From Eledone cirrhosa (Eukaryota): a stretch of 64,000 bases of DNA. The notes under the pieces are model-generated. The model was not told the DNA's origin, did not search any database, and saw nothing but the letters and a program-made list of their open reading frames with translations. Shown here in pieces: positions 1,070-58,423 of the stretch; the stretch's first letter is position 1; each line of letters starts with the position of its first letter. Made by a program: the position numbers and the translations under genes. The DNA lies in the NCBI GenBank assembly GCA_964016885.1, contig OZ024760.1, positions 992,001-1,056,000 of the forward strand. The letters are read 5' to 3'.

Positions 1070-2018
1070 AATTTAGAAGGGCCCTAGATAAACATAAAAT
1101 CAATATTAAGATAGTAGAAAGACCAGGTACCTCCGTAAAAACACTTATTAGCAAGACATACCCTTTCCAAAGACCCCCCTGTATAGATAAGAAATGTATA
1201 ACCTGTAAAATAAGCCCCCATATTAACTGTAAAACTAGAAATGTAGTGTATAGCACAAGATGTACTGAAGGACAATGTAGAGACAAAAATATAGTGTACA
1301 TAGGTGAGACAGCTCGTAGTGTAGGGGAACGGATAAATGAACACTGGCGAGACCTTCAAGATAGTAAAGAATCATCTGTACTCTACCAACATGCTAAAAT
1401 AGAACATAAGGGTAAATTAGAGAACATAGAAATAAATATAGAATCTACACACAGAAAAGACGCAATGTTTAGACAAATCACCGAGGCAATAAACATAAAA
1501 GAATTACAACCAAAATTAAATAGAAAATATGAGTGGAACAGCAACATCACAACTTACAATTAAGGACAAAATGAAAACACACACACACATAGAACAAACA
1601 ACCAACCGGTAACATGTAAATAAACAAATAAATAAACAAATATAAACACACACAGACACCCGGATGTGGCGCATGCGCAGACTGAGCACACAACACACAC
1701 AGAGAAATAAAATGGCGTAGGACAGAACAAAGGAGAGGCACAAAAACAAAGAAAAGAATCCCCAGTCACTGCAGAGGTCACAGAATGTGTGACGAAAGAA
1801 CTTTGACAATATATAAACAACTATCTGGTTGTTGAACCAACCAACCGACCAGAAATTTATAAATTCCTAAATTTATAAATTTATTATAATAAATTGAGGT
1901 GAAAGCAACTAGTGCGTGTGTTTCTTATTGGCAACATGACCCTCCCAAAGTATAACAATATCGGTTTCAACACACGTTTTCAGATAAAGAATCTTGCTAA
2001 ACAAATTCAGAAACGAAA
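1070..2018 (+). mobile_element. 5'-truncated Penelope-like element: GIY-YIG endonuclease end plus 3' pLTR region
   Basis: Translates ..[52 protein letters not shown] (stop at 1563). Near-identical to the inverted copy at 45216-46180. Flanked by (TA)n on both sides. Confidence 0.92.
1765..1807 (+). ncRNA. Minimal type I hammerhead ribozyme, mutated core, in PLE pLTR
   Basis: GTCA-CTGCAGA-G-GTCACA gaatg TGTGAC-GAAA-GAAC-TT-TGAC; the core is CTGATGA in the 45.4 kb copy. Confidence 0.7.
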
Positions 2019-6788: not shown

Positions 6789-7078
6789 TATATTGTTATA
6801 TTTTGGGAGGGTCATGCTGCCAATAAAAGCACACGCACCTGTTGGTTGGTTTGATAACTGGAAGTTTATTATATATTGTCAAAGCTCTTTCATCACACAT
6901 TCTGTGACCTCCTCAATGACTAGGTTTTTATTTTGTGTCTCTCTTTTGTTCTGTCCTACACCATCTTGTTCTTGTGTGTTGTGTGACCCTCCCAAAGTAT
7001 AACAATATCTGTTTCAATATATGTTTCAACACACGTTTTCAGATAAGAAATCTCGCAAAACAAATTCAAAAACGAATT
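6789..7078. mobile_element. PLE pLTR remnant with inverted junction (minus 6789-6983, plus 6983-7078) and degenerate hammerhead at 6878-6920 (-)
   Basis: Homologous to 1690-2018 in both orientations. Confidence 0.8.
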
Positions 7079-7658: not shown

Positions 7659-8072
7659 CCCTTTAGCATTCACATTACTCTATATATACTATTATATGTT
7701 CATGGTAAAGGCGGTGGATTGGCAGTATCGGTAGAGGGTCGGACGCCATACTTTCCAGCATAGTTATGTCCCTTTACGATCTGAGTTCAAATCCCGCCAA
7801 GGTTGACTTTGCCTTTCATCCTTACGGGGTCGATAAAATAAAGTACCAGTAATGCACTGGGTAATTTGCTGGCCTTGTGCCTAAAGTAGAAACAATTATA
7901 TTTTCATGGTAAAGGCTTTACCTCGCATAATTATCTCGCATAATATCGAATCTATGAGATTTTGAAAGTATTTATTTTGAGAACAATACCATGACATCAG
8001 TATGAGTGGCCAGTTACAGCCAGTTTCAACAGAAAGAGGTAGCGAATTCTTGCCGGTTTGAACATTAAAGGG
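7659..8072. mobile_element. piggyBac-like MITE (TTAA-flanked, CCCTTTA..TAAAGGG ends) interrupted by a SINE
   Basis: TTAA|CCCTTTAGCATTCA ... TGAACATTAAAGGG|TTAA; related partial copies at ~16830-16998 and ~52535-52760. Confidence 0.7.
7710..7898 (+). mobile_element. tRNA-derived SINE (family A)
   Basis: GGCGGTGGATTGGCAGTATCGGTAGAG (A box), GAGTTCAAATCCCGCC (B box), core GCCTTTCATCCTTACGGGGTCGATAAAATAAAGTACCAG; target-site duplication (TSD) TTATATkTTCATGGTAAA. Confidence 0.9.
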
Positions 8073-8304
8073 TTAATAGTAATGACTGGTTGTTCCTTGT
8101 TTTTTTCAGATAACTAACAAATAAGTTGTCACTGTTGGCAGATATATTTAATTTGCCAATCAGTGAATTTGGACAATTTTTTGATCAGGGTGATCTTGCT
8201 GCTAGGTCTGACTCCAATTCTAGAGACCTGTTGTATGAAGGTCCCGATAACTACGCCTGAGGGCAGACACATACACACACACTAATATATTTTTTCAATA
8301 AATA

Positions 8305-8480
8305 TAATTGTTTCTACTTTTGGCACAAGGCCAGCAATTATCCCAATGTATTACTGGTACTTTATTTTATCGACCCCATAAGGATGAAAGGCAAAGTTAA
8401 CCTCGGCGGGATTTGAACTCAGACCATAAAGGGCCGTAACTCTTTGCTGCAAAGCATGATGTCCGACCCTCTACCGATTG
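8305..8480 (-). mobile_element. SINE family A copy
   Basis: Reverse complement of 7710-7898. Confidence 0.88.
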
Positions 8481-13919: not shown

Positions 13920-14590
13920 ATAATGGTTTCTTATTTAGGCACAAGGCCGCCAATTTTGGAGTGGGTGGGGGAAAGTCGATTAAATTGACCCCAGTGCATT
14001 ACTGGTGTTTCATGTTATCGACCATGTAAGGATGAAAGGCAAAGATAACCGTGGCAGGATTTGAACTGAGAAGGCAAAGGGCCATAACTCTCTGCCACTG
14101 CCACTAAGCATGTTGTCTAATGCTCTACCGATTCTGCCAAACCACTACCCTGTATTAGTAATAATAATAATTGTTTCTACTTTAGGCACAAGGCCAGCAA
14201 TTACTCCAGTGCATTACTGGTACTTTATTTTATCGACCCCGTAAGGATGAAAGGCAAAGTCAACCTCGGCGGGATTTGAACTCAGATCGTAAAGGGACGT
14301 AACTATGCTGGAAAGCATGGTGTCCGACCCTCTACTGATACTGCCAATCCACCGCCCTTATTAGTAATAATAATAATGATTTCTACTATTGGCACAAGGC
14401 CAGTACTTTGGGGGGGGGGAAGTCGATTAAATCGACCCAGTGCATTACTGGTACTTTATTTTATTGACCCCGTAAGGACGAAAGGCAAAACTAACCTCGG
14501 TGGGATTTGAACTCAGAACGTAAATGGCCACAACTCTATGCTACAAAGCATGTTTTCTGATGCCCTACCAATACTACCAATCCACCGCCC
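13920..14590 (-). mobile_element. Tandem array of three family A SINEs
   Basis: Copies at ~13920-14150, 14165-14358 and 14375-14590, separated by TATTAGTAATAATAATAAT. Confidence 0.88.
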
Positions 14591-14622
14591 TTTTTTAATC
14601 TAATAATAATAACAACAGTATA

Positions 14623-16644: not shown

Positions 16645-17022
16645 GTATATGTGTGTGTATGTGTGTGTATGTGTATGAGCAAAACATGTTTCATGGATCC
16701 ATCTAGTCTCCGACCTTGATGGCCTGTCCAGTGCATGCCAGCCTGGAAAGAGGATGTAAAATGATGAGGATGAGGCAGACAGACAGATAGATTGATAGAC
16801 AAAGAAATAGACAAACAGACAGACATTGTATTTTCACGGAAAAGACTTTACCTCATAATATCGAGTCTATGAGATTTAGATGTTATTTATTTTGTAAACA
16901 ATACCTTAACATCAGTATGAGTGGCCAGTTACAGCCGGTTTGAACAGAAAGAGGTGAGAGAATTCTGGCTGGATATGGCCAGTTTAAATGCTAAAGGGTT
17001 AATGTAAGGTTCTTATATAAAA

Positions 17023-17211
17023 TTATTTGTTTCTACTTTTGGTACAAGGCCAGCAATCACCCAGTGCATTACTGGTACTTTATTTTATCGACCCTGTAAG
17101 GATGAAAGGTAAAGTTAACCTCGGTGGGATTTGAACTCAGTCCATAAAGGAACGTAACTGTGCTGCATAGCATGGCGTCCGACCCTCTACCAATACTGCC
17201 AATCTACCACC
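17023..17211 (-). mobile_element. SINE family A copy with 16-bp TSD
   Basis: TCTTATATAAAATTAT at 17011-17026 and 17212-17227. Confidence 0.9.
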
Positions 17212-17819
17212 TCTTATATAAAATTATATTGGAAGATTTAAATTTAAATTGAAAACCTTTAAAATGGGTGGTTTTATATTCATAGAACCAGAGCTGGTTT
17301 TAGCTGGGTTGGTAACCAAAGGGTTACAGTCCTCTTCTGCATGAAACCACATTAAGAAGATATTCTTCAAAAGTACAAAACAGCATTATTGTGGTTGAGC
17401 TTGTGGCAGGGGAGACTATGTTTATGTGTGTAGATTTGAAAGAATTACAGATAACGATATACATAAATAAATATATAGGATCGTCAAGTACGAAATTTGT
17501 AGAAATTAGTTTTTTTTTCTACAAATTTCATACCTGACGACCCAATACAAATACATGACATATCATTATGGTTGATTGTAATATTATTATTTTATACTAT
17601 TTACAGGTTCTGGTTAATTTATCATTAAAAATAACCACCAAAACAAAACTAAACTGGATTTTACTCTATTAGGCTTATTATGGTAAGTAAACCATTTTTA
17701 ACATCTTGATTAATATATTTCCAGCACATCTCCCTCACAATCCTCTGGGGAAACATCTTCTCTATTCTGTCTGCTGGGGCTGTGGGGTGGCCAGCACCTG
17801 GGCCCCCATATGCTCATAA

Positions 17820-18990: not shown

Positions 18991-19452
18991 CTATATCAAG
19001 TGTTAAACTAATATATTTCTTCATTGTACTGGAATGTTCTCTCGTGTTGTTTTTCCTCGTTGACTTTCTTCATATTTATATAATCATCATCATCGTCATC
19101 ATCATTTTTACATTGATTTTGCCATTCCGGCATGGGTTGGACAGGACTTTTCAAAGCAGTGCTTTACAGCTGGGTGCCCTTCCTATCTCTATAACCTCCT
19201 ATGGTATTCCTATTATATATATCTATCTATCTCTATCTCTATATATAACACCAGACATCATGTTTTTTTGTTTTATGAGTCTGACCTGTATTATAATGTC
19301 ACCTTTTTGCTTGTTTGATGATATGTAGAGCAGAGGACCTGTCCCCAGTATATCTAATGAGGCACGGCCCGCCCCCCTACATTGACACGTTTGTAGATTA
19401 AAATAATGCTGTAAATCTTAACTGGTTATCCATTGTTATTTTACATATATAT

Positions 19453-19640
19453 GGCGGTGGATTGGAAGTATCGATAGAGGGTCGGACGCCATGCTTTCCA
19501 GCATAGTTACGTCCCTTTACGATCTGAGTTCAAATCCCGCCGAGGTTGACTTTGCCTTTCATCCTTACGGGGTCGATAAAATAAAGTACCAGTAATGCAC
19601 TGGGTAATTGCTGGCCTTGTGCCAAAAGTAGAAACAGTTA
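19453..19640 (+). mobile_element. SINE family A copy with 18-bp TSD
   Basis: GTTATTTTACATATATAT on both sides. Confidence 0.9.
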
Positions 19641-19685
19641 TTTTACATATATATATATACATATATATATATGTGTGTGTGTATG

Positions 19686-19733
<48 letters not shown>

Positions 19734-19746
19734 CACACACATATAC

Positions 19747-20390
19747 AAATGGAAGTTTTGGCTGTGGCCAAGCTAGCGATATACAATTAGGTTTGTGCAG
19801 CAAAGCACTCAATAAGGGTGTATCACCTTACAGTAATAAACATACATTAGATAGCGTGACAAATTGAAAACTGTGGCAGGCATGCCTCGCCACATAACAG
19901 CAAAGCAACAAAAATACATTCAGGTTAGATAACAAACCTGGACCGTCTCGAAAGGTGTTGTGCAATACCTCCGATAGGTTTCTGTGAGTCCAAAATCAAC
20001 AATCCTACTTGCGCAATATGGCAAGTTTATGGTATTCGATGACAGAACTGTGGACTCATGTTATCAACAGGTTTCCGTTCTGTGCCCCAAACAGGTGTAA
20101 AGTGTGTAGGCTACTACGAATGGTAGCAGTCAATGTTTCACTATCACGTGCTTTTTCCCCAACGAGGAAATTGGCAGCAAATTTAAAGTGTGAACACAGG
20201 AATTGATGCCATTCCACAAACCGAATAAGAAGCTCTCAACTGGACGTTTATATATATATATGAATGAAAGGGTGGGCCAACCGTTACTTTGTTCCGAGGC
20301 CCCAAGAGCTAGCAACATCCATTTTGAGAAAAATCTTTGCCTACTTCGGCGCCCTAAAGGGCCCTGTACTGCCTTGTATACAGTATGAAT
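19747..20390 (+). other. Unclassified ~640-nt hairpin-rich non-coding element (structured family, member A)
   Basis: More than 10 short hairpins; shares ordered motifs with 44.9, 56.4 and 57.0 kb (see findings); flanked by microsatellites. Confidence 0.7.
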
Positions 20391-22791: not shown

Positions 22792-23026
22792 ATATTGTTA
22801 TACTTGGGGAGGGTCATATTTGTGTAATATTGCCAGAATTAATAACAGAACACACTCACTGTTTGGTTGGTTTTCGCTTTTGAAAAGTGAAAACCAACCA
22901 AACAGTGAGTGTGTTCTGTTATTAATTCTGGCAATATTACACAAATATGAACCTCCCCAAGTATAACAATATTTGTTATGACACACGATTTCATATAAAA
23001 AACCTCGCAAAACTAATTCATCGCCG

Positions 23027-32978: not shown

Positions 32979-33138
32979 GGTAAATATACACGGGTGTGTA
33001 TGATTGTGTATAGAAGATTATATTAATAAGAGGAATTCCAGCTTTGTCTGATTTACTCGTTTTAATTACAATCCTTTAAAATTTATAATGGTATTATAAT
33101 GAAATAGTATGATAGAATATTAAATTCTAAGTGTTAAT

Positions 33139-33177
33139 TGAACAAGTACTTTCATGCTTTCGCAATCTTCAGGTTCA
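33139..33177 (-). ncRNA. Minimal type I hammerhead ribozyme
   Basis: Mirror of 33251-33289. Confidence 0.75.
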
Positions 33178-33250
33178 TAATGTGTGGTGACAGTCGAGTT
33201 TGCAATTTTCAACTGTTGAAAATTGCAAACTCGACTGTCACCACATATCA

Positions 33251-33289
33251 TGAACCTGAAGATTGCGAAAGCATGAAAGTACTTGTTCA
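33251..33289 (+). ncRNA. Minimal type I hammerhead ribozyme
   Basis: TGAAC-CTGAAGA-tTGC gaaa GCAt-GAAA-GTAC-TT-GTTCA. Confidence 0.78.
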
Positions 33290-33563
33290 ATTAACACTTA
33301 GAATTTAATATTCTATCATACTATTTCATTATAATACCATTATAAATTTTAAAGGATTGTAATTAAAACGAGTAAATCAGACAAAGCTGGAATTCCTCTT
33401 ATTAATATATATATAGATATATATGTGTGTGTGTGTGTGTGTGTATTGTAGTAGTCGTAGTCCTTGGGCCCAAAAGTCGTTCTTGTCGTGACCATCTTGT
33501 CTAATGTGATCTTTCTCTTCTTTCTATCTATCTCTTCTCTATCTTTACTCGTTCTCTCTCGTC

Positions 33564-37424: not shown

Positions 37425-37488
37425 ATTTTATTATATATATTTCAAGGGTAACCAAGATAAATTATGGTGCGCTTTCATCAGATAAAAT
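37425..37488 (-). ncRNA. Minimal type I hammerhead ribozyme
   Basis: Mirror of 37606-37669. Confidence 0.75.
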
Positions 37489-37605
37489 ACATATGTGTTT
37501 TATAAATAAATATTGACATACCAGGAAAAAAGACAACCTCAACGAATTTCAACCGTTGAGGTTGTCTTTTTTCCGGGTATGCCAATATTTATAAAACAAA
37601 TATGT

Positions 37606-37669
37606 ATTTTATCTGATGAAAGCGCACCATAATTTATCTTGGTCTCCCTTGAAATATATATAATAAAAT
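37606..37669 (+). ncRNA. Minimal type I hammerhead ribozyme
   Basis: ATTTTAT-CTGATGA-AAG..ACCA..TGGT..CTT-GAAA-TATATA-TA-ATAAAAT. Confidence 0.78.
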
Positions 37670-44916: not shown

Positions 44917-45190
44917 AAACAAACATAAATTATCGAGATTCGCATTTCGGCCCACGAAATAATGAAAAACAACCTCCGAGATGTGTGGCAAGTGCTCAAT
45001 GATTCAGATGAACCAGAGCTATAACAAACGTTAAAGGCCAAACACACTAAGACGATGGTTAAACAATCATTCGTATAGCCAAAAATTTACCCGGACCCCT
45101 GGAAGGTTGGTAAAATCCAGTATATGGGTTTCTGCGGCTCCTAAATTAAGTACCGTCCGCTTACATAAATAATGTCAGGCTTCTGGTAAA
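44917..45190 (+). other. Truncated diverged member (B) of the structured non-coding family
   Basis: Aligns by eye to 57028-57130 and 57260-57345; (TA)n on both sides. Confidence 0.75.
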
Positions 45191-45440
45191 TAATATATAT
45201 ATATATATATATAAATATTTCGTTTCTGAATTTGTTTAGCAAGATTCTTTATCTGAAATCGTGTGTTGAAACCGATATTGTTATACTTTGGGAGGGTCAT
45301 GTTGCCAATAAGAAACACACACACCAGTTGCTTTCACTTCAATTTATTATAATAAATTTATAAATTTAGGAATTTATAAATTTATAAATTTCTGGTTGGT
45401 TGGTTGGTTGGTTCCACAACCAGGTAGTTGTTTATATATT

Positions 45441-45482
45441 GTCAAAGTTCTTTCGTCACACATTCTGTGACCTCATCAGTGA
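45441..45482 (-). ncRNA. Type I hammerhead ribozyme in PLE pLTR
   Basis: TCA-CTGATGA-G-GTCACA gaatg TGTGAC-GAAA-GAAC-TT-TGAC, ~200 nt downstream of the ORF stop. Confidence 0.85.
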
Positions 45483-45683
45483 GTGGGATTCTTTTCTTTG
45501 TTTTTGTGCCTCTCTTTTGTTCTGTCCTACGCCATTTTGTTTCTGTGTGTGTGTTGTGTGCTCTCTCTGCGCATGCGCCACATCCGGGTGTCTGTGTGTG
45601 TTTATATTTGTTTATTTATTTGTTTATTTACATGTTACCGGTTGGTTGTTTGTTCTATGTGTGTGTGTGTTTTCATTTTGTCC

Positions 45684-46973
45684 TTAATTGTAAGTTGTGA
45701 TGTTGCTGTTCCACTCATATTTTCTATTTAATTTTGGTTGTAATTCTTTTATGTTTATTGCCTCTGTAATTTGTCTAAACATTGCGTCTTTTCTGTGTGT
45801 AGATTCTATTTTTATTTCTATGTTCTCTAATTTACCCTTGTGTTCTATTTTAGCATGTTGGTAGAGTACAGATGATTCTTTACTATCTTGAAGGTCTCGC
45901 CAGTGTTCATTTATCCGTTCCCCTACACTACGGGCTGTCTCACCTATGTACACTATATTTTTGTCTCTACATTGTCCTTCAGTACATCTTATGCTATACA
46001 CTACATTTCTAGTTTTACAGTTAATATGGGGGCTTATTTTACAGGTTATACATTTCTTATCTATACAGGGGGGTCTTTGAAAAGGGTATGTCTTGCTAAT
46101 AAGTGTTTTTACGGAGGTACCTGGTCTTTCTACTATCTTAATATTGAGTTTATGTTTATCTAGGGCCCTTCTAAATTTGTAAGCTAATTCACTTCTAGGG
46201 GTTGTATCGATGAACATTACACTCTGGTATTTATTGCTATCATACCATGAGTTTATTCTATTAGCCTTATTCCTAGTTCTTTCTATTCTATTCCAAAATT
46301 TGCTCCTATACAAGGTTCAGGTCCCATTTGTGTCATTATTTACCATTTTTTCCCATTTGGTTCTGACTCCTCTATACACTCCGATTTTATCTCTCTGATT
46401 GTAACCAGAGAACTGCATACGGTGGATGAAGTGTTGTATGTGTCTCTCTAGTTCTTCGGGGTTGCACATGCGGGACACGTTTCTCATCACCCGTACCAAA
46501 TCCGCAATCAGTATGTTGATTTTGGTATGGTCCAAAACAGCCGAGTTTCGGTGGATCAGATGTTTGGAAGTCATGGGTTTGGCATAATGGGAATGGAGGA
46601 TTTGTTTTTTATTATTAATGGTATCTAACCAGAGCTCTGTGTCTAGTACAGGTAATCGATGGTTGGGGTGTTTACTTGGGTAGTCTATAGTAACTCTAAT
46701 ACTCTGGTGGATGGAGTTAGCTATTTGCAGGATGCTTTCCATTGTGTTTTTCTCTAGTTCCTGACTGTTCTCTAGTGGGGGTGTCTTAACTACGATGTTT
46801 ATATCATCAACGTAGCGGGAGTACATTATCAGGGTTAAGGGGTCTTCTAATTGTTCTTTAAGTTTAAGTTTAAGTCTACTGTCCCACCATACCATGAATA
46901 AGTTAGCTATGTCGCCTGCAATGCTAACACCAATGGCTGCTCCTTCCTCTTGGGCATATGTTTTTCCATTAAA
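45684..46973 (-). pseudogene. PLE reverse transcriptase (motifs B/C, thumb) fused to Cys-rich linker and GIY-YIG endonuclease; one in-frame TGA at 46317-46319
   Basis: FNGKTYAQEEGAAIGVSIAGDIANLFM, YSRYVDDI, LPVLD, C-x4-C-x2-C..C..NVVY..C..C..YIGETAR..R..EH; the two ORF-track pieces are in the same frame. Confidence 0.93.
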
Positions 46974-47071
46974 TTAAATTTAACATATGCCCAAGAGAAA
47001 GGCTCATTGTACTCTATATATTAACCTTCATTACTTTCATTCTAATGAAATATACTCTATTTTAATTAATT

Positions 47072-47487
47072 AATTGTTTCTACTTTTTGGCACAAGGCCA
47101 GCAATTATCCCAGTGCATTACTGGTACTTTATTTTATCGACCCCGTAAGGATGAAAGGCAAAGTTAACCTCGGCGGGATTTGAACTCAGACCATAAAGGG
47201 CCGTAAATCTTTGCTGCAAAGCATGGCGTCATTGACCCTCAACTGATACTGCCAATCCACCGGCCTAAAATGGTTTCTTATATAGGCACAAGGCCAGCAA
47301 TTTTGGGGGAGGGGAAAGTCGATTAAATCGACCCCAGTGTGTAACTGGTACTTTATTTTATCGACCTCGTAAGGATGAAAGACAAAGTTAACCTCGGCGG
47401 GATTTGAAGTCAGATCATAAAGGCCCGTAACTCTTTACTGCAAAGCATCGCGTCCAACCCTCTACCGATACTGCCAATCCACCCGCC
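47072..47487 (-). mobile_element. Head-to-tail dimer of SINE family A inside one TSD
   Basis: CTATTTTAATTAATTAAT at 47057 and 47488. Confidence 0.88.
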
Positions 47488-48306
47488 CTATTTTAATTAA
47501 TTAATGAAGGATTTTGATGGATTTCGAAAATTATTGATTATTTCATTACTGGGATAGTAAATACTGGGAGATAGGACTTCACTTGTCTAGCGTCTAGCAA
47601 CACCACCAATGACAACAACATCATCAACTCCAAAGCCACCAACAGCCCCACCAACAAACAAATACCATGAACAGCAACAACACCACCACCACCAACAACA
47701 ACACCATTAACATGATCATCACCACCACAACCACCACCATCAACACCACCACCATCAAGACCACCACCACCATCACCATCAACACCACCATCACCATCAA
47801 TATCAACAACCCCACCAACATCATCATCACAACACCACAACCAACCTCACCACTACCACCACCACCACCACCACTAATGACATCAACAATCCCGCCACCA
47901 CTACCCTCCCTGGGCCCTGACATCTCTGATGGCAATGTAAAGGAACCTCCATAATTAAACTTCTTAACCTCATTTCTGTCACACACCCCCTCCTCACCCT
48001 TCCCTCTAATAAGGTTGAGGAGAAGGAGGAGGGGTAGAGAAGTTGAGGGGAGAGGACTCACTCTAAGCACATGCCTTGTTGATGATGATGATATTGATGA
48101 GGGTGGTGGTGGGGATGGTGATATGGTGCGGATGGTGTGATGGTGAGGATGAGGGTGGGGATGGTGTGTTGACCATGGGGATGATGATGTTGATGAGGAT
48201 GGTGGGGGTATGATGTGTTGATGGTGATGATGATGATGATAACTGTAGTGGACAATGCAGAGCATTGTATCATTCTGATGCTGATGTAGCTATGGTCCAG
48301 GATGTG

Positions 48307-54873: not shown

Positions 54874-54925
<52 letters not shown>

Positions 54926-55074
54926 CAACTTATCACCACACCCACCCACGTACACTACAGGTAAAATCATCCCTAGGAATTAATCCACCAGTCAATACAA
55001 ACTTTACTGACCACCATAGGCGCATCTGACTTTATCATACGGCATGTATATACATTTTTCCATTACCACTACAA

Positions 55075-55160
55075 GGGTCTGACGAGCCGTGGATTACAGA
55101 GTCGGGTCAGATCAATACAGATCGAACCTTGAGCTGATCAGTGACGAAACGCGCGCCACC
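55075..55160 (+). ncRNA. Hammerhead with ~60-nt stem II domain
   Basis: GGGT-CTGACGA-GCC..GAC-GAAAC-GCGC-GCC-ACC; cleavage triplet mutated. Confidence 0.6.
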
Positions 55161-55334
55161 AATCAATAAACGTAATGAAGGAGTAACCAATCGTCCTTGT
55201 TATTTTATTTCACTATAATACACTCTGTCGAGCTCTACACCTCAACTCTGAAGTGAACCTAAACATCGAGTGCTCACCCGGATGAACCTACAGTAACTCC
55301 AAGTTACACTCTCTGGATATATATATATATATAT

Positions 55335-56230: not shown

Positions 56231-56444
56231 TTATATTCATATATATAATGTATATATATATATATACATATATATATGTATTTATATTCATATATATGCA
56301 TATTCATATATTAATATATGTATATTCATATAAATGTATGTATATTCATATATGTCTATATATATTCATATATATGTTTATTCATATACATATGTATGTT
56401 TATGTATATCTATCTATATATATATATATATATAGATAGATATA

Positions 56445-56997
56445 CAAAATTAAGATAAATCAAAATGAATTTAATCTAAATCAAAATTATGGGTGTCATG
56501 CCAGAAAGACATGCGCCATATCACCCGCAAAATAAGCTCTAAGATTCTAACGAGGAGGTCCGAGCATTTTATAATAACTAGAAATTGATTAACATATAAA
56601 TAAACATGAATAATCAAAAGAGATAATTGTTACAAGTGTGTAAGCACACATAGCTAGGTAGGTAACTAAATAAAGTTGACCAGAACTTCAAAAATAGATA
56701 CCTTATAATATGATTAATCTTCCCTGTATATATTCCATTAAAGAAATATATTTCACCAATTAATCGAATGGTAAACCATGGAGGCCGGTACTTGGATTTT
56801 CAACAAGGAAGAAGTCCAGCGATCTATGTTTACACTTCAAGTTCAAATCAGCGACTGGCCAGCAACACGTGCCGTATCTACTAGAAATACACATCATACC
56901 AGCTTCGTCACAGTGGCGTGGATAGCGTTATCGACAACTAGAAACAGCAGTCAAGTCCTTTCAACAGAGTTAGCTCTACAATTAAGGAGCCGTATTT
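56445..56997 (+). other. Distant member (C) of the structured non-coding family
   Basis: GCTC-TAA-GATTC..GAGC, TGGATAGCGTTATCGACA and GCAGTCAA in the family order; TA flanks. Confidence 0.55.
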
Positions 56998-57011
56998 ATA
57001 TATCTATATAT

Positions 57012-58423
57012 ATATATTAGAAAGATCGAGTATCGAAAAATCGGCGCACGAGTTAACGAAAAACGAAATCCGATATGAGCGGCAGAGGGCTCAATAATTC
57101 AGATGAATCAGAGCTATAACTATCGTTAAAATACCGTCACATATAGAACAAGTCTACAATCAACCATACGATTTAAAATCGATAAAGGAAGATTCGGGCC
57201 AAACAGATAAAAAATATCAAAAAAACAATACGTCAATAATTTAAATGAATGTAAAATCATACCCGGACCCACTAGAAAGGTGTTAAATCTAGCTTCATGG
57301 GTTTCTGTAAATCCTTAGACAGTACTCTATCAGCTCACATATAAATATAAAAGCCTACTAGAATAAGTGGAATGGAGTTTACGTTGTCAACGAGTTTTAT
57401 CCTGGCGGCAAAGGAGTCAACTAGCGGTGAAAAACGCACATGGCATTAGACAAGGGAGATGACCCCTATATCCGCGAAAATAATTCGAGTGAATGTGGAA
57501 ATACACATATCGAATTAGAGTGCTCAATAGACATGTTAAAATAAAACAAAAGCTATTCATCACTCAATAGAATCGACAAAATATGAGCAATAAAATTAAC
57601 TGGTGGATAGCTATGTCCAGAGCTAAATATATTAGAAAGATCGAGTATCGAAAAATCGGCGCACGAGTTAACGAAAAACGAAATCCGATATGAGCGGCAG
57701 AGGGCTCAATAATTCAGATGAATCAGAGCTATAACTATCGTTAAAATACCGTCACATATAGAACAAGTCTACAATCAACCATACGATTTAAAATCGATAA
57801 AGGAAGATTCGGGCCAAACAGATAAAAAATATCAAAAAAACAATACGTCAATAATTTAAATGAATGTAAAATCATACCCGGACCCACTAGAAAGGTGTTA
57901 AATCTAGCTTCATGGGTTTCTGTAAATCCTTAGACAGTACTCTATCAGCTCACATATAAATATAAAAGCCTACTAGAATAAGTGGAATGGAGTTTACGTT
58001 GTCAACGAGTTTTATCCTGGCGGCAAAGGAGTCAACTAGCGGTGAAAAACGCACATGGCATTAGACAAGGGAGATGACCCCTATATCCGCGAAAATAATT
58101 CGAGTGAATGTGGAAATACACATATCGAATTAGAGTGCTCAATAGACATGTTAAAATAAAACAAAAGCTATTCATCACTCAATAGAATCGACAAAATATG
58201 AGCAATAAAATTAACTGGTGGATAGCTATGTCCAGAGCTAAATATATTAGAAAGATCGAGTATCGAAAAATCGGCGCACGAGTTAACGAAAAACGAAATC
58301 CGATATGAGCGGCAGAGGGCTCAATAATTCAGATGAATCAGAGCTATAACTATCGTTAAAATACCGTCACATATAGAACAAGTCTACAATCAACCATACG
58401 ATTTAAAATCGATAAAGGAAGAT
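57012..58423 (+). repeat. 2.3 head-to-tail copies of a 615-bp non-coding structured unit (member D)
   Basis: AAAGATCGAG at 57021, 57636 and 58251; copies identical by eye; (TA)n on both sides. Confidence 0.95.

Follow-up and report, generated by a model that had tools for sequence, protein, structure and literature searches.

The window analyzed here is a 64,000-nucleotide stretch of the Eledone cirrhosa genome (assembly GCA_964016885.1, contig OZ024760.1, forward-strand positions 992,001 to 1,056,000); the host genome is 3.0 Gb and microsatellite-rich. The interval from 19747 to 20390 had been read in a first-pass annotation as one monomer, which proved mistaken, as two elements are joined there. 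A genome search with the interval as query returned 57 matches from the 40 scored of 3,609 candidates, and the longest of these cover query positions 1 to 502 only, with 77-88% identity, ending at window position 20248. Intact copies of this family, termed family A, run ~110 nt beyond query 502 and then restart, giving a ~620-nt unit followed by a variable part of a second unit; they sit in (TA)n and have a fixed left end. The window copy, a putative retrozyme copy on the minus strand at 19747-20248 delimited by genome comparison, retains ~500 of the ~620 nt with short internal deletions, and is ~85% identical to the closest of the scored genome copies. Its fixed end abuts a (TA)n/(CA)n microsatellite at 19647-19746, the insertion target, a context that recurs in other family A copies, and at its variable end a TA run is visible in the sequence at 20249-20261. 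Beyond this, at 20262-20378, lies an end-less fragment of a ~150-bp MITE, foreign to the retrozyme element and matching a separate genome element. The MITE family (626 candidates, including loci L107-L113) has CAGGGCC terminal inverted repeats and, in other copies, 8-bp flanking duplications, from the length of which we take it to be hAT-like. Because 20262-20378 matches this separate MITE, the arm pairs GGGCC/GGCCC and GCCC/GGGC, counted earlier as hairpins of the monomer, fall outside it. No long open frame was found in the six frames of families A and C. The window copy is a worn, ordinary member of its family, either an early-stopped product or a collapsed array.

Other repeats are present in the window. 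A ~200-nt SINE-like repeat has many copies (7705-7907, 8269-8478, 13983-14610, 17014-17233, 19429-19649, 47060-47507 and others), one of them directly left of the TA run that precedes 19747. Near-perfect long inverted repeats, overlapping as palindromes, occur at 33019-33409 (386-nt arms), 22792-22972 (177) and 37442-37652 (214).

What structure do the conserved blocks of family A encode? Read on the minus strand, to which all coordinates in this paragraph refer, they correspond to a type I hammerhead of variant form, with predicted self-cleaving activity. Stem I pairs ACCUG (20068-20072) with CAGGU (19936-19940), and the GUC triplet (G16.2, U16.1 and C17, 19941-19943) places the predicted cut at 19941/19940; the descriptor and the alignment agree on both. 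The core U3 U4 G5 A6 U7 A8 A9 (20067-20061) and the extra C that follows it (20060) form a block, 20060-20067, recognized by the descriptor. Stem II, defined by the alignment, occupies 19984-20059, pairing 20059-20052 with 19991-19984 (TGGACTCA/TGAGTCCA) and enclosing ~60 nt. After it comes an extra A (19983), then G12, A13, A14 and A15.1 (19982-19979), a block (19979-19983) defined by the descriptor and the genome core pattern. Stem III (19942-19979; descriptor and alignment) consists of A15.1-U16.1, two C-G pairs and the AGGTGTTG/CAATACCT hairpin. According to the alignment, a pseudoknot pairs ACAGAAC (20077-20083), 4 nt upstream of stem I, with GUUC (20045-20048) inside stem II, and extends to 7 bp in the window copy (20042-20048). 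On the 3' side of the predicted cut, a branched rod domain (19747-19935) that holds the TTGGC/GCCAA, TAAGG/CCTTA and TGTGGC/GCCACA arms ends at the putative priming site.

The window copy departs from this scheme at the first stem II pair (10.1-11.1), an A.C mismatch there and G.U in 19 of 27 family A copies; its stem II does not close directly on G12, the extra A intervening. The copy is less than one monomer, with a single hammerhead and a variable end that falls before the terminal hairpin, and it therefore cannot release a monomer by double cleavage. Given the one hammerhead and the mismatch at 10.1-11.1, the copy is likely inert, a dead end. All 13 arm pairs named in the first-pass annotation are found within 19747-20390, and the positions it gave (19793, 19985, 20010 and 20051) are correct. 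Its claim of crossing pairings was borne out in part: TGAGTCCA/TGGACTCA is hammerhead stem II and is crossed by ACAGAAC/GTTCTGT, both covarying across subfamilies, so that one of its two crossing pairings is real at the level of the family, on the minus strand. ACAGAAC/GTTCTGT joins the 5' extension of stem I to the internal loop of stem II, and is probably a real minus-strand pseudoknot because contacts between stems I and II usually do this job and because it covaries.

Family A belongs to a superfamily with units of ~580-650 nt. Three families were compared (A, B and C, the last comprising the 615-bp unit), and they are 50-63% identical, A being homologous to B and C over its whole length, so the kinship with the 615-bp unit and with B that had been proposed is upheld. 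Further copies lie in the same window, all on the minus strand. A family B copy (581-nt unit) at 44920-45190, assigned by descriptor and comparison, is truncated before the first core half and has no complete hammerhead. A family C array at 57017-58423 comprises two identical 615-nt units plus 177 nt, with complete hammerheads and predicted cuts at 57266/57265 and 57881/57880. A family E copy (568-nt unit), detected by the descriptor at 56440-57005, directly adjoins the 615-bp array. Profile scans of fetched loci revealed further families (F, 647 nt; G, 604 nt; H; I, 610 nt; J, 615 nt; K; and C2), and the genome pattern search lists yet more lineages. Families A-C, F-K and C2 share one mode of insertion and family E inserts likewise; there is one hammerhead motif per unit. 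The further claim that the element is not a SINE is probably right: Rfam gave no tRNA, 5S or SRP match, and insertions are monomer-plus-part tandems.

Family E has no profile similarity to A, B or C. It carries the same core variant, in the form UUGAAAA, a U.U before stem II, an AUA triplet and a short stem II, and it likely forms a GUAAAC/GUUUAC pseudoknot. An inverted second arm is frequent in E and starts at a fixed internal TA-rich site, unit position 131. All full monomers carry a long terminal hairpin (e.g. 57551-57612) that adjoins the putative priming site and has an invariant TCAAT/ATTAA block; on the minus strand it contains a G.U and an A.C, each of them conserved. This hairpin, missing from the window copy at 19747-20248, is a candidate recognition signal for reverse transcriptase. 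Elsewhere in the window, a ~400-nt unit (~54920-55320) with TA runs on both flanks has a hammerhead-like motif with a canonical core (CUGACGA ... GAAA) at 55079-55149 on the plus strand and is possibly another retrozyme family.

The motif recurs across the superfamily. On the minus strand the descriptor found the core with three stems in 7 of 10 monomers of family A, 17 of 19 of B and 22 of 22 of C, the C loci overlapping and hence non-independent, and in F (2/4), G (2/2), I (1/4), J (3/6) and E (15/19). It was likewise positive on the minus strand of the window copies of A and E and of H and C2, found no motif in the truncated window copy of B or in the decayed K, and gave zero matches on the plus strand of family monomers. 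Descriptor scores of 11, 12 and 13 were reached by 10, 4 and none of 800 shuffles, the window copy scoring 11, and the scores of B, C and E were reached by none of the 800. The hammerhead is the local minimum free energy fold for the window copy and for C, and comes within 0.8-4.0 kcal/mol of it for B, F, G and A. An alignment built before the motif was noticed already had 9 of 17 core columns invariant, compared with 43 of 302 overall.

When 10 copies were aligned on sequence alone, 90.8% of the 240 cells were paired, compared with 84.2 +/- 1.0 in shuffles (0/500), figures that overstate significance because the structure was derived from the tested sequences, the rows were chosen by core pattern and the families are related. 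Both sides have changed in 9 of the 24 pairs, 30 cells are G-U on the minus strand, and slid controls gave 26-50%. Paired cells amount to 96% in stem I, 87.5% in stem II and 100% in stem III, with two-sided changes in stems I and II, and the pseudoknot is 90% paired, also with two-sided changes; A15.1-U16.1 is A-U in all 10 copies. Across 32 sequence clusters, positions 3-8 are U-A in 22, U.G in 9 and C-G in 1, and pair 10.1-11.1 is G-C in 19, G.U in 5, A-U in 5 and something else in 3. A pseudoknot of at least 4 bp, in the forms GAAC/GUUC, GGAC/GUCC and GGAA/UUCC, occurs in 28 of the 32, a count taken without a shuffle control and with the hit of locus L225 in its TA flank. Exact matches to the core pattern number 4,316 genome-wide, against none for the reversed control; variants of the pattern gave 34 matches when the extra A was replaced by any other base and 31 when position 3 was C.

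Standard searches miss these motifs. Searched at the gathering score for the window and with thresholds of E <= 5-10 for young copies, Rfam returned no hammerhead and gave only microsatellite-driven microRNA noise; at the gathering score it also misses the Penelope minimal hammerhead of the window. Crude canonical patterns for the hammerhead, HDV, twister, hairpin and pistol ribozymes and group I introns had no complete match in the monomers and detected two positive controls in the window. As to relatives outside the genome, a first pattern gave 11 viral matches and the core pattern 17 viral and at least 120 metagenome matches. The viral matches and the metagenome matches listed were judged to be due to chance because none has 12 of 14 stem pairs, a level reached by 16 of 20 own-genome loci, and none fits the family profile.

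The folding signal resides in the family and not in the window copy alone. The window copy has 12 Watson-Crick hairpins, compared with 6.9 +/- 2.8 in shuffles (17 of 300 as high), and its long-range 7-mers and 8-mers are at chance level (227/300 and 144/300 shuffles). Folding of the whole interval 19747-20390 gave z of -1.67 on the plus and -1.11 on the minus strand with 20 shuffles. For the element part alone (19747-20248), z was -0.43 and -0.45, respectively, with 11 and 8 of 30 dinucleotide shuffles folding as well; at z about -0.4 there is no excess over shuffles, the outcome that the first-pass annotation had itself named as telling against its proposal. Young relatives folded on the minus strand gave z of -4.6 (B), -2.5 (C), -3.5 (F), -2.7 (G) and -4.0 (E), with 0 of 30 shuffles as good in each case. 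The minus strand folds better than the plus in four of these five, family G being slightly better on the plus. The plus strand was considered as the RNA, as suggested by a few G-U pairs, and was ruled out by minus-strand folding, the motif and covariation; a stack count that also pointed to the minus strand was set aside as biased by base composition.

The other long-range pairing proposed earlier, TTGTGCA/TGCGCAA, together with its equivalents in B and D, occupies homologous positions, is partly conserved and competes with local stems. It is homologous in A, B and C and weak in G, H, I and J, and two local stems would have to open for it to form. On the plus strand it ranks in the top 1.3-3.4% of random duplexes in A, B, C and G. 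Its minus-strand duplex percentiles, which exclude C2, F and K, are 8.1 for the window copy of A, 0.8 for A, 3.8 for B, 0.6 for C, 43.9 for G, 20.9 for H, 9.3 for I and 7.1 for J. The pairing may be an alternative fold or due to chance.

How do these elements spread? Unlike the window copy, family C includes dispersed tandem copies with at least two complete hammerheads, and 31 of its arrays (17 + 14) were studied, a sample biased to long young arrays because it was drawn from the top of hit lists. These arrays contain 1-18 full units with exact junctions and variable right ends, the longest having 18 units over 11 kb, and the first base after (TA)n is identical in all 30 visible left ends. 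Sequence variants are common to all units of one array and differ between arrays (up to 13 per array, 7-13 in three arrays), and no single-unit variant is common to two arrays, which fits round-and-round copying of one monomer and not a linear master transcript. At locus L189 (G000:C1:44273200-44283199), one position is changed from C to A in 5 of 13 units, scattered along the array, and the array ends there; at L502 (G000:C28:54408000-54417500), one position has three different letters. Such mosaic sites may record a damaged base on a single, re-read minus-strand template, although an assembly error would be another explanation; oxidised G in the template would fit with its being read as C or A. 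The T of the target stands at 8 of 12 insertion junctions in family J, where all 7 internal junctions have C, a pattern expected if a (TA)n target primer anneals to the RNA template. Inverted arms, frequent in E, occur in 1 of 31 family C arrays. Together the arrays point to rolling-circle reverse transcription of RNA circles as the likely mode of spread.

As judged from sequence, it is probable that 19747-20248 belongs to a non-coding, non-autonomous animal non-LTR retrozyme, as a decayed copy shorter than one monomer; that the retrozyme has a minus-strand variant hammerhead predicted to self-cleave; and that its family spreads, as is likely, through RNA circles reverse-transcribed into (TA)n. 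A locus with at least two hammerheads would be transcribed on the minus strand, and the hammerheads, their motif and covariation being observed, would cut after GUC with a 4-7-bp pseudoknot clamping stems I and II, freeing a ~600-nt monomer. The monomer would then be ligated into a circle, as in known retrozymes; RtcB circularises retrozyme RNA in vitro, according to the available text of PMC7229834. A retrotransposon endonuclease would nick (TA)n, the freed end would anneal to a UA-rich site on the circle ~190-250 nt from the cut, and a reverse transcriptase, most likely Penelope-like, would circle 1 to 18 or more times before stopping at a variable point, leaving the array anatomy that is observed. 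The copies would subsequently decay.

The same hammerhead and mobility could be imagined without an RNA circle, if master arrays gave long linear transcripts of many units, or if the reverse transcriptase jumped repeatedly from one cut monomer to the next, with unequal crossing-over afterwards. Penelope-like elements do form head-to-tail partial tandems, as the accessible part of PMC8557442 describes, but this scheme sits poorly with single-unit variants that are unshared between arrays, with private variants that are array-wide, 7-13 of them in each of three arrays, with the exact junctions, and with a scattered mosaic site that coincides with the end of its own array. We regard it as improbable.

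The retrozyme reading can be compared with known systems. Like the non-LTR retrozymes of coral, mussel and axolotl, as the text available for PMC7229834 presents them, the Eledone families are non-coding tandem units with a type I hammerhead, ranging from monomers to multimers, with low G+C. The unit range of 51-972 bp reported in a vertebrate retrozyme survey (bioRxiv 10.64898/2026.07.22.740005, in the portion accessible) includes the Eledone unit lengths. Retrozymes that have been tested experimentally have, in the sources available, units of 220-390 nt, whereas the Eledone units are longer. The Eledone hammerhead differs from those of the retrozymes described in these same sources in having both stems II and III long (monomer-type as opposed to dimer-type) and in a core missed by canonical descriptors and Rfam. 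Penelope-like hammerheads, including that of Schistosoma Cercyon, share with it U3-A8, an extra base between 9 and 10.1, a long helix II, a mostly G10.1-C11.1 pair and a short 5-bp helix I, as far as the available text of PMC4209133 goes. The latter are minimal, lack helix III and need dimers, whereas the Eledone stem III has 29-91 nt; the Eledone motif differs from them further in the extra A between 11.1 and G12, U3.G8, the pseudoknot clamp and the absence of an attached open reading frame.

How unusual is the Eledone core? In the Perreault et al. 2011 set, as its main text reports (PMC3088659), a stem I-II pseudoknot occurs in ~40% of hammerheads and raises activity, U3-A8 hammerheads are natural and active, and a U10.1-U11.1 mismatch occurs naturally; family E can be read as having one. 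Set against that main text, two features are particular to Eledone: A.A or C.A at this place, and a pseudoknot that runs from the 5' extension of stem I into the loop of a ~75-nt stem II. Thus U3-A8, an extra base after A9, a U.U opening stem II and stem I-II pseudoknots are all on record in the accessible literature. In that literature, supplements and subscription journals apart, we found no conserved A added ahead of G12 and facing A or C, no U3.G8 in whole lineages, and no retrozyme that joins these to long stems II and III. On cephalopod or octopus hammerhead elements, subscription journals apart, it offers nothing beyond the works cited here.

Activity could be lowered by the additional A that precedes G12 and faces A or C, and U3.G8 is a wobble at a tertiary pair. 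Might the structure then be hammerhead-derived and non-cutting, or very slow, retained as a binding signal for reverse transcriptase while circularisation takes another route? The non-canonical core (the extra A, and U3.G8 in 9 of 32 clusters) would suit such a role, as would the poor in vitro activity of Penelope minimal hammerheads in the accessible text of PMC4209133. Yet lineages that are only 50-63% identical, and the otherwise dissimilar family E, have all kept the catalytic positions together with the triplet and pair 3-8, and a stem I-II pseudoknot is a feature that boosts activity in other hammerheads (PMC3088659, main text). A structure that does not cut is, in our judgment, at least as improbable as spread without a circle.

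Which enzyme would move the retrozyme circles? It is probably a Penelope-like enzyme. The family bears the Penelope marks of a fixed 3' end, 5' truncation (in the sense of the RNA), partial tandems, a (TA)n target and inverted arms. Head-to-tail multicopy insertions, 5' truncation, (TA)n preference and occasional inverted arms are shared with the Chlamys/Naiad non-autonomous Penelope-like elements, as described in the available text of PMC8557442. No family profile match was found in 50 GIY-YIG loci (of 10,597 candidates), which come mostly from a few families, or at the 3' ends of 30 Dong/R4-like LINE loci with a restriction-like endonuclease. The Neptune-like Penelope loci sampled as candidate autonomous partners showed no similarity, nor did the Dong/R4-like LINE, which inserts in (CATA)n-type repeats, not (TA)n. 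Penelope-like hammerheads sampled in the E. cirrhosa genome have C3-G8 and no extra A.

A Penelope-like element is present in the window itself at 45219-47040 (minus strand), encoding a reverse transcriptase with a C-terminal GIY-YIG domain, interrupted by one in-frame stop and ending in (TA)n. Fragments of its 3' part occur at 1071-2017 (plus strand) and 6841-7076, and it carries in its 3' end, near 45450-45480, a minimal hammerhead with C3-G8 and one base added after A9. Loci L289-L325 belong to a LINE of very high abundance (34,073 candidates) that encodes a restriction-like endonuclease and has 1,174-aa open frames and a ~85-nt 3' UTR; we take it to be Dong/R4-like. The lead to Dong-R4 came from the accessible portion of a repeat annotation study (PMC13282606).

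A rolling-circle DNA element, a Helitron or another HUH type, that starts at a fixed A^T and terminates leakily, its folds serving as single-stranded DNA signals, is very improbable. A fixed left end in (TA)n, a variable right end and tandem arrays do fit one-ended rolling-circle transposition, and Helitron-like fragments, which we take to resemble the Rep/helicase frame, are present in the genome (L160, G000:C1:150000001-150010000). Nevertheless, it is the template (minus) strand that has the conserved fold and the wobble pairs, which fit a hammerhead core, the inverted second arms of E start from a fixed internal TA-rich site, and the J junctions have the target T in place of the element C, none of which favors DNA transposition. 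The least credible reading is the first-pass one, a single large plus-strand ribozyme with several pseudoknots spanning 19747-20390, for although there are many hairpins, one conserved crossing pair and the high plus-strand rank of TTGTGCA/TGCGCAA noted above, the last 130 nt belong to another element, the window copy folds no better than shuffles, the core reads as a hammerhead only on the minus strand, and no Rfam family model of a large structured RNA or ribozyme (group I, group II, RNase P, ROOL, GOLLD and others) matches the elements. What survives of the ribozyme inference is a ribozyme-type fold with one conserved crossing pairing, in the form of a small minus-strand hammerhead of ~135 nt with long stems.

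The retrozyme interpretation can be extended, more tentatively and at somewhat less than even odds. The Eledone motif may represent a distinct, fast, monomer-active hammerhead subclass that is missed by standard searches and defines a large and diverse superfamily of animal RNA circles that is still active. Its marks would be U3-A8 or U3.G8, an A.A or C.A pair where the core meets stem II, extended stems II and III, and a pseudoknot formed by the stretch that prolongs stem I on its 5' side. On this extended interpretation each young array would be the record of a single RNA molecule that a reverse transcriptase went round up to 18 times (11 kb), making few errors and logging a damaged base at each turn, and the long-range pairing may act as an off switch for the circular ribozyme.

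The natural hammerhead core is widened by the Eledone families to include a conserved extra A before G12 and U3.G8, and thousands of elements with a predicted ribozyme in one animal genome are missed by Rfam and canonical descriptors. Retrozyme counts are likely underestimates, because elements of this kind escape both. Rolling-circle reverse transcription of retrozyme circles, proposed and still unproven, finds genomic evidence of unusual directness in the arrays, which also supply a candidate template, cut site and priming site. If this is how they arose, the reverse transcriptase responsible would have run round a 615-nt circle for 11 kb while making few errors, a property of technical interest.
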